The notes under the pieces: generated by a model
Database searches by the model: none
What the model saw: the letters and a program-made list of their open reading frames with translations, nothing else
Told to the model about the DNA's origin: nothing
In this document: in pieces, positions 17,203 to 19,004 of the stretch
Layout: each line of letters opens with the position of its first letter
Numbering within the stretch: position 1 is the first letter of the stretch
Position numbers and translations under genes: made by a program
Source: Alphaproteobacteria bacterium
Lineage (GTDB): Bacteria; Pseudomonadota; Alphaproteobacteria; MPNO01
Reading direction: 5' to 3'
DNA length: 64,000 bases
Assembly: GCA_965231875.1 (NCBI GenBank)
Contig: CBDDOM010000002.1
Location: 2,627,942 to 2,691,941 of the forward strand

Positions 17203-18041
17203 CACCGGAAACCGCGCAGGCCGGCCGCGTCGCCGGCAAGGCGGTGCTGGTGACCGGCGCGGGGTCGATCGGGCCGGGCTGGGGGAACGGCAAGGCGGCC
17301 GCTGTGCTCTACGCCCGCGAGGGGGCGAAGGTGCTCTGCGTCGACCGCCGGCTCGACGCGGCCGAGGAAACCCGCGACATCGTCGCCGGAGAGGACGGCA
17401 GCGCCGTCGCGCACCGGGCGGACGTGACCGACGAGAGCGACATCGCGGCCATGGTCGGCGCCTGCGTCGACGCCTTCGGGCGGATCGACGTCCTGCACAA
17501 CAATGTCGGCGGCTCGGGTCCGGGCGCGGCGCTGATGGACGTGGCGCTGGAGGACTGGAACGACACCCTTGCCCGCAACGTCACCGGCGCCTTCCTCGCC
17601 ATGAAGGCCGCGATTCCGCACATGGAGGAACAGGGCGGCGGGGCGATCGTCAACATCTCATCGATCGCCGGACTCACCCATATCGGCGTGCCCTCGACCA
17701 GCTATTCGGCGGCCAAGGGGGCGCTCAACGAACTGACCAAGAACATCGCGATCCAGTACGCGGCGAAGAACATCCGCGCCAACTGCGTCGCGCCGGGGCT
17801 GATGAAGACCCCCTTCATCCTGCGCGAGAAGGACGGCGTTCCCAACCACATCCGCAAGGGCTACGCGACGCCCGAGGAATACCACGACGCCCGCGGCGCG
17901 ACCGTCCCGATGCGCCGCATGGGCGACGCCTGGGACGTCGCCAAAGCCGCCCTCTTCCTCGCCAGCGACGACGCCGCCTACATCACCGGCCAGTGCCTCG
18001 TGGTGGACGGAGGCCTGACGGCGACCAGCCCGGGGGCGTGA
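17199..18041 (+). CDS. SDR-family oxidoreductase
   Basis: [16 protein letters not shown] Rossmann motif and NNVGGS. The start overlaps the upstream stop in an ATGA. Confidence 0.75.
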   Translation: [280 protein letters not shown]

Positions 18042-18114
18042 AGGGCAGCAGGGTGCGTGGGCGGCCGAACGAAGTGGCCGGACGCCCGGCCATCCGCCGA
18101 TACCGCCAGCGGTC

Positions 18115-18459
18115 CTAACGGCCGAGGACGACGTCGACGCTGGCGAGCAGCAAATCGAGCTTGGCCGACGCGATGCGGCCTGTGCGTTCTTCGAGAAGAG
18201 CCCGGTCGAGAGCGACGATCTGTGTCGCGTTCGCGACGGAGTCTTTCGGCAGACCGGTCATCGCGGCGGTCAACAGCACGTTTCCCGGCGCGTCCGTCCA
18301 CCGCAAATTGCTCGTCAGCGGGACACAGACCGCCGTGGCCAACCGGCTCCGGTTCAGCGCATCGCCCTGGACGACGACGACCGGCCGGCGAAAGCCCGGC
18401 CCCGAACCCGTTGGCTCCGGCAATTCGGCCCAGCACACATCGCCCTGGGAGATCACCAT
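18115..18459 (-). CDS. Type II toxin, MazF/PemK family endoribonuclease
   Basis: 114 aa. GDVCWAELPEPTGSGPGFRRPVVVVQGD is the PemK/MazF signature. It overlaps the upstream small RHH gene by 7 nt. Confidence 0.7.
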   Translation of the reverse strand: MVISQGDVCWAELPEPTGSGPGFRRPVVVVQGDALNRSRLATAVCVPLTSNLRWTDAPGNVLLTAAMTGLPKDSVANATQIVALDRALLEERTGRIASAKLDLLLASVDVVLGR

Positions 18460-18713
18460 TCGGTGTTGGCGAGCACCCGCCTGCCGGCGGCGGCGAGGAA
18501 GGCGTCATCGTTCCCGTCGACCTCGCCGCACACCCGGTTCATTGTTTCGGTAACCTCGTCTTGCGCATGGCGCGCGAGATATTCGCCGAGTGCCGCCGCG
18601 TAGACTTCGCTTCGGGACCGCCGTCCCTGCGAGGCCAGTCGTTCGGCGCGTTCGAAAATGTCGTCGGGGATGGATACGGCTGTCTTCATACCCGCAGTAT
18701 GACCCCGTCCCAT
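18453..18713 (-). CDS. Type II antitoxin (ribbon-helix-helix / MazE-like)
   Basis: The small protein MKTAVSIPDDIFERAERLASQ has an N-terminal beta-strand plus helices typical of CopG/RHH antitoxins. The real start may be the internal Met at about 18689. Confidence 0.55.
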   Translation of the reverse strand: MGRGHTAGMKTAVSIPDDIFERAERLASQGRRSRSEVYAAALGEYLARHAQDEVTETMNRVCGEVDGNDDAFLAAAGRRVLANTEW

Positions 18714-18739
18714 GACCGGCGGTCAAGGGTTTTCCGGAT

Positions 18740-18897
18740 GACGTGCGGTGCGACCGTCCCAATGCGCCGTATGGGCGACGCCTGGGGCGTCACCAGGGCC
18801 GCCCTCTTCCTCGCCAGCGACGATGCCGCCCACATCTCCGGACAGTGCCTCGTCGTCGACGGCGGGTTCACGGCGACCAGCCCCGGGGGCGTGAGGC
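18740..18897 (+). pseudogene. Orphan 3'-terminal fragment of an SDR gene, duplicate of the 17199..18041 C-terminus
   Basis: About 155 nt at 85-88% identity to 17895-18045. It encodes [47 protein letters not shown] against [47 protein letters not shown]. A 1-nt insertion removes the stop. No N-terminal part exists. Confidence 0.7.
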
Positions 18898-19004
18898 CGT
18901 TCCTCAATACGGTCCCTCCCGCAAGCGGGAGGGGGGAAAGTAGGGAGGAGTGGACAAGCCTCCCTTTCCCCCGTGGGGAGAGGGTCGGGGTGAGGGGCCG
19001 TCCC

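Follow-up and report, generated by a model that had tools for sequence, protein, structure and literature searches.

The stretch of DNA analysed here, a 64-kb segment from an uncultured alphaproteobacterium (hereafter, the window), contains two convergent SDR genes, SDR1 and SDR2, between which lies a compact toxin–antitoxin (TA) module (Table 1). The order observed along the DNA is that of an intact gene, an insert, and a truncated direct copy of the gene's tail; we refer to the copy within SDR1 as T1 and to the orphan copy as T2. Orthologs of SDR1 with 86–100% identity occur in many relatives, in which the synteny of SDR2 is also kept, and the SDR1 tail is under purifying selection (pN/pS 0.09).

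Table 1. Features of the SDR1–SDR2 locus and their positions in the window.
Feature	Coordinates	Strand	Description
SDR1	17199–18041	+	Intact short-chain dehydrogenase/reductase gene, 280 aa; Pfam adh_short_C2, E 8e-57
T1	17893–18044	+	Functional repeat copy: last 49 codons of SDR1, stop codon and 3 nt
Spacer 'x'	18046–18102	.	T1 to cassette; hairpin TGGCCGG-4 nt-CCGGCCA at 18075–18092
TA module	18103–18744	-	Terminator-like hairpin, toxin, antitoxin, promoter/operator region; limits taken from a homologous copy whose locus is unrelated to this one
Toxin	18115–18459	-	MazF/PemK family, MazF6-like, 114 aa; PF02452, E 2.4e-20, full-length match
Antitoxin	18453–18689	-	RHH-type, MazE6-like, 78 aa; most likely start ATG 18689 (MKTAVSIPDD...)
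Promoter/operator region	18690–18744	-	Putative; -10-like CATACT at 18696–18701, -35 TTGACC at 18721–18726
T2	18745–18896	+	Second SDR1 3′ end, orphaned and in decay; frameshifted by an extra C; gene body absent
GC-rich hairpin block	18897–19004	.	Intergenic; opens with the ancestral post-stop motif CCGTTCCTCAATACGG
SDR2	19005–19772	-	Convergent second SDR gene bounding the variable gap; Pfam adh_short_C2, E 9e-61

The duplicated gene tail and its decay

The initial annotation described a direct duplication of an SDR gene tail, about 155 bp long, around a TA pair, and our alignment bears this out: the segment 17893–18044 recurs at 18745–18896 with 88% identity (150 columns, BLAST E ~1e-49). 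The ungapped core (17893–18036 and 18745–18888) is 88% identical, and a single 1-nt indel extends the repeat as far as the stop codon and 2–3 nt beyond it. The second copy had been said to lack an N-terminal body and to have lost its stop to a 1-nt insertion; the insertion is an extra C at ~18884, which moves the frame of T2 so that the former TGA at 18892–18894 is no longer read. The GC-rich hairpins noted after T2 were also recovered, as a block with a minimum free energy of -65 kcal/mol (z -2.6). No direct repeat in the 64 kb is longer than this 152-nt tail repeat. Comparable repeats (at least 60 nt, at least 80% identity, 200–6000 nt apart) are rare: 10 were found in 1.45 Mb of fetched loci, and three of these are the SDR1-tail locus.

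Could the repeat be an artefact of assembly, either collapsed or chimeric? The relatives are metagenome-assembled, and this general caveat is all that speaks for it. Against it, the two copies differ at ~18 positions and by one indel, the same architecture is present in two independent, ~10% diverged, chromosome-level assemblies (L001 and L006), and its left part, the junction between T1 and the cassette, occurs in three further contigs (L081, L086 and L170). We therefore give an artefact a negligible probability.

T2 is a relic under relaxed constraint. Its three carriers, the window, L001 and L006, contain three different frameshifting indels, one per genome, and the pN/pS ratio of the T2 copies is 0.30–0.77, compared with 0.00–0.12 for the T1 copies. 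We attribute the divergence of T1 and T2 to age together with relaxed selection on T2. Among the related loci, T2 is restricted to genomes with the cassette or its antitoxin remnant, and an orphan tail lacking any TA module was not found. No T2-specific substitution is common to all three T2 copies. At two sites, T1 and T2 of the TA-bearing genomes agree with each other, against the TA-less genomes, and the 'GCGGCGCGACC' variant is found in all T2 copies and in the T1 of the window clade, rather than in each T2's own T1. The window, L001 and L006 have one and the same junction between the cassette and T2 (18744/18745), but differ at the junction between T1 and the cassette.

The MazEF6-like module

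The insert had been read as a MazEF-like cassette with its toxin and antitoxin on the minus strand at 18115–18713. The family matches agree with this reading: in addition to the PF02452 match, the PDB sequence closest to the toxin is MazF6 of M. tuberculosis (E 1.8e-24); residues 1–39 of the antitoxin match MazE6 at E 2.7e-5, and there is a weak RHH_5 match (17 bits, below the Pfam cutoff). The order and strand of the pair also stand, but the antitoxin start does not. It is most likely the ATG at 18689 rather than 18713, judging from the gene call in L081 (78 aa) and from the alignment with L083 and L084. The antitoxin is upstream of the toxin, co-directional with it, and overlaps its start by 7 nt. 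Sequence similarity thus supports the assignment of the cassette to the type II TA modules as a MazEF6-like member of the MazF/PemK toxin family. It resembles MazEF6 of M. tuberculosis (Rv1991A/Rv1991c) in its MazF6/PemK_toxin match and in the overlapping upstream, RHH-like, MazE6-matching antitoxin, although it is a distant homolog from an uncultured alphaproteobacterium, compared by sequence alone. Its antitoxin differs from the AbrB-type MazE of E. coli MazEF.

The presumed promoter/operator region contains two inverted repeats, TCATAC/GTATGA and CCCATGACCG/CGGTCAAGGG, and its -35/-10-like hexamers and palindromes are kept in three independent copies of the cassette. A simple consensus scan called no promoter at 18690–18744, because the -35 and -10 hexamers are 19 nt apart, and the cassette promoter is therefore a putative assignment.

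The cassette family is very abundant (the toxin has more than 8000 close homologs), and the module also occurs at unrelated loci, with 88.8% nucleotide identity to L083 over window positions 18103–18738 and 80.7% identity to L084/L085 over 18115–18726. Homology of the window to L170 and L081 likewise ends at 18743/18744. Flanking repeats of the kind seen here were not found around the modules at the unrelated loci L083 and L084; the duplication is thus no inherent property of the module, and we dropped the idea that the TA module itself generates tail duplications.

Allelic states of the SDR1–SDR2 gap

We located relatives through homolog look-ups and pattern scans, and compared about 15 related loci; looking up the exact sequences of SDR1 and of the toxin from the window gave no match. 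The genes flanking the gap are conserved core genes in synteny, and the gap itself is highly variable in content. In the empty alleles (L088, L171 and L176), SDR1 and SDR2 are just 4–28 nt apart, and the hairpin block at 18897–19004 is missing. The window and L001 have the TA module with T2, whereas in L006 the toxin is deleted, leaving the antitoxin alone with T2 and another cassette. Retention of the antitoxin after loss of the toxin is, as far as can be judged from the sequences, the order of decay that would be expected of a live TA module. Other alleles contain the TA module or a remnant of it and no T2: in L081 and L170 the cassette lies just after SDR1, and in L081 ~290 nt of unrelated DNA occupies the place of T2. 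A suspected likeness of this DNA to the C-terminal end of an IS transposase was not confirmed by Pfam or NCBIfam. Spacer 'x' is common to the window, L081, L086 and L170, and its first ~35 nt (18046 to ~18080) in the window clade are unlike those of L001.

Two further cassettes are found at the gap. In L004, a 39-nt relic of the SDR1 tail comes after cassette B, and ancestral intergenic DNA after the relic; in L003, cassette C is bracketed by a 216-nt duplication of intergenic DNA together with 83 nt of the SDR2 tail. The products encoded by cassettes B and C are an HTH protein accompanied by unknown proteins, and a trypsin-like/OmpA protein. The boundaries of the duplications therefore vary, at -149 in SDR1 for the TA module, -39 in SDR1 for B (L004), and -83 in SDR2 for C (L003). 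No integrase or transposase was found in or beside the TA cassette, in the window or the ~15 related loci, or in cassettes B and C. Insertion of an IS or a transposon was rejected, because there is no transposase ORF, no terminal inverted repeats bracket 18046–18744, and the duplication is 152 nt long rather than 2–15 bp.

The initial annotation had offered two origins for this arrangement, namely that a tandem SDR paralog was largely replaced by the TA module, or that the duplication arose from, or was used in, the uptake of the cassette. The first, in which the 5′ 690 nt of a former SDR1 paralog were replaced, would account for an orphan C-terminal fragment of SDR1 lying downstream in the same orientation. 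However, none of the ~15 related loci contains tandem SDR1 copies, the empty alleles leave a gap of only 4–28 nt, T2 starts exactly at the cassette edge, and T2 has none of the old, shared, paralog-specific substitutions that such a history would leave. A tandem paralog is thus very improbable. The second origin is supported, in that T2 begins precisely at 18744/18745, is confined to genomes with the cassette or its antitoxin remnant, and is decaying.

The DNA that follows the stop codons of the two tail copies provides a further view of this history. The ancestral 'CCTCGATACGG' motif is located 3′ of T1 in L001 (25 of 26 positions identical to L003), and 3′ of T2 in the window. In L001, ~27 nt of L003-type intergenic DNA directly follow the SDR1 stop; in L004, T1 is followed by a match to the short spacer of L171 (18 of 22), and the relic by L003-type intergenic DNA. 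In the window, L001 and L004, therefore, T1 and T2 have different intergenic types 3′ of them, which suggests that pieces of different alleles may have been juxtaposed at the gap; the post-stop motif likenesses other than 'alpha' are short (8–17 nt) and weakly significant. Within the 150-nt tail itself, no mosaic of donor and recipient sequence is demonstrable. Between the window and L001, synonymous divergence is ~0.124 in the TA genes (19 differences at 153 sites) and ~0.237 in the flanking genes (164 at 692). The lower value for the TA genes, on ~150 sites, and the sharing of 'GCGGCGCGACC' by the T2 copies suggest that the allele bearing the TA module and T2 may have spread laterally. A sliding-window identity profile had no clear divergence trough centred on the cassette. 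A younger age of the TA genes is suggested by the synonymous-site comparison alone.

Origin of the duplication and movement of the cassette

How might the tail have come to be duplicated? We consider the locus to be, with roughly even probability, the scar of an insertion-duplication at a cassette hotspot, produced by recombination that was either homologous or one-ended. The compact MazEF6-like module is a discrete, widely dispersed unit, and would have entered the narrow gap between SDR1 and SDR2 on DNA that also bore the final ~150 nt of SDR1 in a further copy. Integration would have occurred by a Campbell-type single crossover of a circularised or re-circularised fragment within the SDR1 tail or, alternatively, by a closely related event that was homologous at one end and illegitimate at the other. 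The homologous segment would thereby be duplicated, with the T1 copy keeping SDR1 intact and T2 left beyond the cassette as a promoterless orphan that decayed afterwards. The allele may then have spread among lineages that are ~10% diverged, and later remodelling would include the deletion of the toxin in L006 and the loss of T2 in L081 and L170. We infer a circular or one-ended intermediate, dependence on RecA, and the direction of spread; toxin addiction may counter loss of the cassette through recombination between T1 and T2.

Several features lead us to favour this insertion-duplication. First, the order of gene, insert and truncated tail, with a 152-nt repeat at 88% identity, is the one expected. 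Second, integrases and transposases are absent, and the flanks are syntenic core genes. Third, scars of the same type surround other cargo (B in L004 and C in L003) with different boundaries. Fourth, the junction of the cassette with T2 is constant, while that with T1 varies. The different intergenic types after the two tail copies, the signs of lateral spread and the relic state of T2 may also speak for it. There is also an experimental counterpart: in E. coli, when homology was available on one side only, 56 of 60 integrants had a 109–950 bp duplication of the homologous locus, which the authors ascribed to re-circularisation of the incoming molecule and one crossover (PMC3240628). The repeat of the window is long enough for homologous recombination and falls within this range; the 39-nt relic of L004 is at the lower limit. 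In the same study, true HFIR gave an insertion with a deletion (PMC3240628); because HFIR usually yields a deletion and not a duplication, we keep it only as a related variant. The likeness to these integrants (Amarir-Bouhram et al. 2011, PMC3240628) and to Campbell integration lies in the direct duplication that flanks the insert and in a dedicated recombinase being unnecessary. The differences are that theirs was a laboratory conjugation assay in E. coli, whereas the structure in the window occurs in nature, is old (12% divergence between its copies) and includes a TA module, and its intermediate is one that we infer.

Some observations count against a single crossover. The natural promoter-side end of the cassette adjoins T2 without any filler, and a randomly broken, re-circularised fragment would be unlikely to end exactly at the edge of the cassette. 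Two other routes would explain this edge equally well or better, namely direct insertion with a long target duplication, and insertion inside the gene followed by recombination. The lack of flanking repeats around the modules of L083 and L084 also weighs against it, and neither a circular form, nor an empty-site recombinant, nor a progenitor allele was observed.

In the first of these routes, illegitimate insertion in place, through end-joining or replication-associated repair, would have produced a long target-site duplication without homologous recombination or a foreign tail: the module would have joined at staggered positions, 17893 and just past the stop, and the ~150–180 nt between them would have been duplicated. 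The natural right end of the cassette, which directly adjoins T2, is also the junction in L083, L081 and L170; the lack of shared T2-specific substitutions and the two states shared by T1 and T2 both fit an origin in which T1 and T2 were identical; and the ~27 nt of ancestral intergenic DNA after T1 in L001 are what would be expected if the duplicated target passed the stop. Nevertheless, to our knowledge no bacterial mechanism regularly yields target duplications of 40–200 nt. Because T1 and T2 are followed by different intergenic types within each genome, this route must also invoke additional local replacements in L001, in L004 and in the window, and it leaves the lower divergence of the TA genes relative to the flanks unexplained. 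We regard it as possible but unlikely.

The second route, a crossover within the cassette between an allele carrying it after the SDR1 stop and one carrying it at 17892/17893, would duplicate the interval that separates the two insertion points, and accounts for both natural cassette ends and for the intact gene. The cassette family is very abundant, with copies at many loci, and L081 and L170 carry the cassette just after SDR1 without T2. However, this join-point duplication requires that one module inserted twice, independently and in matching orientation, within ~200 nt, and an allele with a disrupted SDR1 was not found in the ~15 related loci. We consider it improbable.

We also considered the relic of a site-specific element, of the type of e14 or phage 21 in icd of E. 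coli or of a non-autonomous CIME, in which T1 would be element-borne, T2 would be the displaced native tail, and all but an addictive TA module would since have been lost. When e14 is present at icd, the element supplies a new tail that keeps the gene intact, and the native one is displaced to the far end of the element. The layout around SDR1 matches that of icd and icdC around e14: a second ~150-nt copy of a 3′ end keeps the gene intact, the displaced copy is a pseudogene fragment at the far end, and the 3′ end of the target gene forms direct repeats at both ends of the element. TA modules typically outlast the decay of the mobile elements that carried them, and junctions recur at the right end of the cassette. 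In contrast, e14, phage 21 and CIMEs encode or need a site-specific integrase and a fixed core, whereas no integrase was found in the neighbourhood in the window or in any of the related loci, and the boundaries vary. A fixed crossover core is absent, since the other cassettes use -39 of SDR1 and the SDR2 tail, and the T1 copies of TA-bearing genomes are not a lineage distinct from the TA-less tails. Such a relic is thus quite improbable.

Returning to recombinational insertion-duplication, an extension of it, which we hold to be rather doubtful, is that the TA module acts as a recombinase-free 'homing' unit, carried along with an SDR1 tail copy and with a few nucleotides of intergenic DNA from its former host, and recombined by the new host. 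In each new lineage, the fragment would circularise and integrate by host homologous recombination in the conserved tail, so that the junction of cassette and tail stays constant while the other is made anew each time. This would explain why an intergenic type that closes the locus in one genome is met, in another, in the interval from T1 to the cassette, in the order alpha-type host, L001, L006 and the window, as well as the occurrence of the same scar around other cargo at the gap.

A recent review holds that the way in which chromosomal TA modules pass between hosts and become integrated "remains unelucidated" (PMC7167474). The gap between SDR1 and SDR2 resembles the folA-apaH (ccdO157) and relA-mazG intervals of Enterobacteria, plastic gaps between core genes that hold a TA module, small elements or REPs, or nothing, and in which, as here, the TA module decays in some lineages (PMC3184786, PMC7167474). 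In the portions of these sources that we consulted, a gene-tail duplication is not noted for those intervals (PMC3184786, PMC7167474), whereas at the SDR1–SDR2 gap the scar is preserved and its type recurs for three different cassettes.

Most chromosomal TA loci known to us have no insertion scar. Our literature search, the primary ccdO157 paper aside, found no specific description of a TA cassette flanked by a duplicated gene tail. The locus is otherwise an ordinary MazEF-family module beside a pseudogene fragment, and may be regarded as a tidy natural example. The preserved scar, with its 152-nt duplicated tail, one invariant junction and many allelic states, including empty sites, together with the comparable scars around two other cassettes at the same gap, makes it a tractable natural case for testing how cassettes are placed. 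The question that can be tested is whether host homologous or one-ended recombination, and not a dedicated recombinase, sets small cassettes beside core genes. If the 'homing' reading were true and general, it would provide a concrete route by which type II TA modules and other small cargo move between chromosomes.

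The repeated SDR1 tail and the module it encloses

The last ~150 nt of SDR1, an intact short-chain dehydrogenase/reductase gene, are present again downstream, and a toxin-antitoxin (TA) cassette lies between the functional copy, T1, and the orphan copy, T2, as the initial annotation had claimed. On recomputation, the ungapped repeat (17893-18036 and 18745-18888) has 88% identity; allowing one 1-nt indel, it extends through the stop codon and 2-3 nt beyond (BLAST E about 1e-49). T2 lacks a gene body upstream, and an extra C near 18884 places the old TGA out of frame; both earlier observations held, as did that of GC-rich hairpins following T2. 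No direct repeat in the 64-kb window is longer than this pair, and 3 of the 10 comparable close direct repeats in 1.45 Mb of fetched loci are this same locus in three genomes. An assembly artefact is not supported, and we give it almost no credence. Elsewhere in the window, two ~78% identical segments, 926 nt apart, are probably tandem paralogous genes.

Coordinates of features in the window and in loci of other genomes
Feature	Location	Strand	Remark
SDR1	17199-18041	+	
T1	17893-18044		
TA module	18103-18744		small hairpin past toxin stop, toxin, antitoxin, promoter-like region
Toxin	18115-18459	-	PemK/MazF, Pfam E 2.4e-20
T2	18745-18896		
Hairpin block	18897-19004		GC-rich
SDR2	19005-19772	-	convergent SDR gene
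Palindromic element	14486-14589, 49488-49586, 50967-51079; L170 2893-2993; L001 3308-3407, 11494-11584		
Second TA-like pair	50684-51576		
Phd-like ORF	50684-50927		no family match
VapC-like toxin	51139-51576		PIN domain, PF01850 E 2.6e-12
Similar segments	56689-56830, 57615-57756		
Toxin remnant	L006 6842-7119		
Cassette B	L006 7331-8960; L004 6829-8373		
Cassette C	L003 7053-8615		between convergent SDR genes
Module and IS region	L083 346-1779, 4820-5303		
IS repeats	L083 394-932, 4898-5272		
Degenerate ispG and amidohydrolase	L170 3011-3494		
Replacement DNA	L081 ~2626-2945		reverse complement

The left junction of T2 (...TTTTCCGGAYGACGT|GCG...) is identical in the window and in L001 and L006, two loci of related genomes, so the three T2 copies derive from one event. 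No T2-specific substitution inside the repeat is common to them, each having private changes, and the indel near the old stop differs (+C in the window, -C and -3 nt in L001, -G in L006). Against the functional-tail consensus, pN/pS is 0.00-0.12 for T1 copies and 0.30, 0.66 and 0.77 for T2 copies, and non-synonymous divergence is 4-10 fold higher in the latter; T2 is thus a non-coding relic in decay. The 12% divergence between T1 and T2 reflects age and relaxed constraint, not an older paralog.

The description of the cassette as MazEF-like also stood: among solved structures the toxin is nearest to M. tuberculosis MazF6 (E 1.8e-24), and the overlapping upstream gene encodes an RHH-type antitoxin (weak RHH_5 match) akin to MazE6 (E 2.7e-5). 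The antitoxin likely starts at ATG 18689, giving 78 aa; the start called for this gene in L081 and the alignment of other module copies both back this position. The toxin family is very abundant (>8000 matches, many 80-98% identical), and this TA is a new, MazF6-like member of the MazEF family. Copies of the module occur at unrelated loci. In L083 it adjoins a PKS gene as well as IS copies (88.8% nucleotide identity over 18103-18738); in L084, L085, L166 and L167 it has a HIBADH-like gene on one side and aspS on the other (80.7%). Comparison with these copies marks out about 640 nt as a self-contained unit. Its promoter-like region has TTGACC and CATACT/TATACT hexamers and palindromes conserved across module copies; a simple consensus scan called no promoter there. 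Flanking repeats were sought at the unrelated loci and none was found; thus, the tail duplication belongs to the SDR1 locus or event, not to the module.

In the window, neither TA gene is disrupted and both show purifying selection (dN/dS about 0.2); the module is therefore probably still active as an addiction-type TA. L006 holds an orphan antitoxin at the syntenic site: two deletions wrecked the toxin gene, leaving ~30 nt and the start region, and the antitoxin and promoter are intact. L006 and L170 appear to follow the usual order of decay, with the toxin lost first. In L083, the module and a methyltransferase gene lie between full and partial DDE_Tnp_1_4 IS copies, a composite-transposon-like setting that could mobilise the module. 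A second TA-like pair in the window comprises a small Phd-like ORF and a VapC-like toxin ~210 nt apart; inside that spacer lies a copy of a ~100-nt palindromic MITE/REP-like element (CCCGTCATGGTCGGCG.AGGCCGACCATCCA ... TGGATGGTCGGCC.GCGCCGACCATGACG), another copy of which is ~1.4 kb upstream. The window has three copies of this element, which is also found in related genomes.

The gap between SDR1 and SDR2 in relatives

SDR1 scans yielded about 15 related loci (86-98% protein identity) from uncultured Alphaproteobacteria. The syntenic core flanks are oligopeptidase B, ispG, an amidohydrolase and SDR1 on one side, and convergent SDR2, an Ldh2-family gene and an EamA transporter on the other; the gap between them is highly variable. 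It is empty or tight in L088/L087, L176/L177 and L171-L174, with stop codons 4, 13 or 28 nt apart. The window and L001 have TA and T2; L006 has the antitoxin, T2 and then a second cassette, B. In L004, B directly follows SDR1, and a 39-nt SDR1-tail relic, fused to B's truncated small ORF, precedes ancestral intergenic DNA. In L003 a third cassette, C, is flanked by a direct duplication (216 nt, 74%) of intergenic DNA and 83 nt from the SDR2 tail. L081, at 97% identity to the window, keeps the TA and has ~290 nt of other DNA in place of T2 and the hairpins, whereas L170 retains a TA remnant (promoter and antitoxin 5' part) after SDR1, followed by unrelated DNA, with further deletions nearby. 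Synteny is lost past SDR1 in L002. In L170, what survives of ispG and the amidohydrolase is degenerate (430 nt at 79% identity, with everything else deleted) and a recQ-side context replaces SDR2 and the genes beyond, a sign that genes here were lost or rearranged.

Behind a low-GC leader, cassette B codes for an XRE-type HTH protein (326-362 aa; C-terminal domain without family assignment), an overlapping, likewise unassigned 124-aa protein and a small hydrophobic peptide (MTPWIIAGAGFAAVVLSLYLEWRSGNL); its two copies are just 74% identical in flanks of ~90%, and B could itself be a TA or defence-like module. The product of cassette C is a 475-aa protein that combines a trypsin-like peptidase with an OmpA domain.

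An orphan tail without TA or a TA remnant was looked for in the about 15 loci and not found. Nor did any contain tandem SDR1 genes, and the T1-T2 divergence is not paralogous; the earlier suggestion that the TA replaced a tandem SDR paralog is thus unsupported and very improbable. Integrases and transposases were absent from all these loci. The remains of an e14/icd-type element that once relied on an integrase are improbable here, since two defining features, an integrase and a common core, are absent.

Junctions and the route of insertion

The right junction (18744|18745) is invariant. The cassette edge borders four different sequences (T2, the DNA that replaces it in L081, and the flanks in L170 and L083), so the natural end of the module abuts T2 without filler. 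The unrelated L081 DNA begins exactly at this edge; its translation (…GEIKWKGRLVYVNQALAGEPVALIEDDEGLW…) is reminiscent of transposase C-termini, an assignment that neither Pfam nor NCBIfam bore out. One idea for this breakpoint, as for that of L170, is ectopic recombination between dispersed cassette copies.

The left side is variable. After T1, the window clade (window, L081, L086, L170) has a specific sequence of ~35 nt, and L001 has ~27 nt matching ancestral L003-type intergenic DNA at 25/26 positions; in the window, this ancestral motif sits after T2, not T1. In L004, T1 precedes sequence like the short L171-type spacer (18/22), and the 39-nt relic precedes L003-type DNA. Weaker post-stop likenesses link L006 T1 to L001 T2 (14/17) and L006 T2 to window T1 (8 nt). 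Within each genome, the intergenic DNA attached to the two tail copies is thus of different types, as though segments from distinct alleles had been put together.

Two sites have one state in both T1 and T2 of TA-bearing genomes and another in TA-less genomes. The 'GCGGCGCGACC' variant of window-clade T1 is in all T2 copies; the T1 of L001 and L006 has 'GCGCGGCGACC'. Between the window and L001, synonymous divergence is about 0.124 for TA genes (19/153 sites) and about 0.237 for flanking genes (164/692). Together, the shared junction and variant states and the lower TA divergence suggest, on small site counts, a single origin of the TA+T2 allele and later spread among already diverged lineages; a sliding identity profile was not decisive.

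How might this arrangement have arisen? The locus has a complete gene, then an insert, then a shortened direct copy of the homologous segment, the textbook arrangement after a single (Campbell-type) crossover of the chromosome with a circular molecule that carries this segment. In E. coli, DNA with one-sided homology gave 109-950 bp duplications of the homologous locus in 56/60 integrants; the authors put these down to single crossovers of a molecule that had re-circularised, and saw insertion plus deletion after true homology-facilitated illegitimate recombination (PMC3240628). On these grounds we favour, at about even odds, a recombinational insertion-duplication, in which DNA with the cassette and an SDR1 tail would enter through the conserved tail, T1 completing SDR1 and T2 being left as an orphan. 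Several features agree with such an event, or with a one-ended event closely related to it. First, no recombinase was found. Second, the same signature recurs at cassettes B and C with other boundaries. Third, T1 and T2 lie on different intergenic types, the right junction being constant and the left variable. Fourth, the TA genes appear younger. What counts most against this reading is the exact contact between the cassette's natural end and T2, for which two alternatives would give a simpler account: an illegitimate insertion made directly and duplicating a long stretch of target, a lesser but real contender, and recombination between two insertion alleles, which seems improbable, if slightly less so than an e14/icd-type element.

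As a refinement of insertion-duplication, we speculate, with somewhat less confidence than direct insertion commands, that fragments circularised and re-integrated in a chain, each host's terminal intergenic type becoming the spacer in the next host. Recombination between T1 and T2 would excise exactly the cassette; such loss would be disfavoured both by post-segregational toxicity and by the repeats' 12% divergence, which may explain why the scar persists.

Significance of the scar

Variable TA loci between core genes have already been described, as at folA-apaH and relA-mazG, and insertion-duplication is an already known outcome of recombination. Less usual are the long preserved scar around a chromosomal TA and the parallel scars around other cargo in the same gap. 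A statement in a recent review calls TA cassette integration unelucidated (PMC7167474), and the preserved scar bears on how such cassettes integrate.
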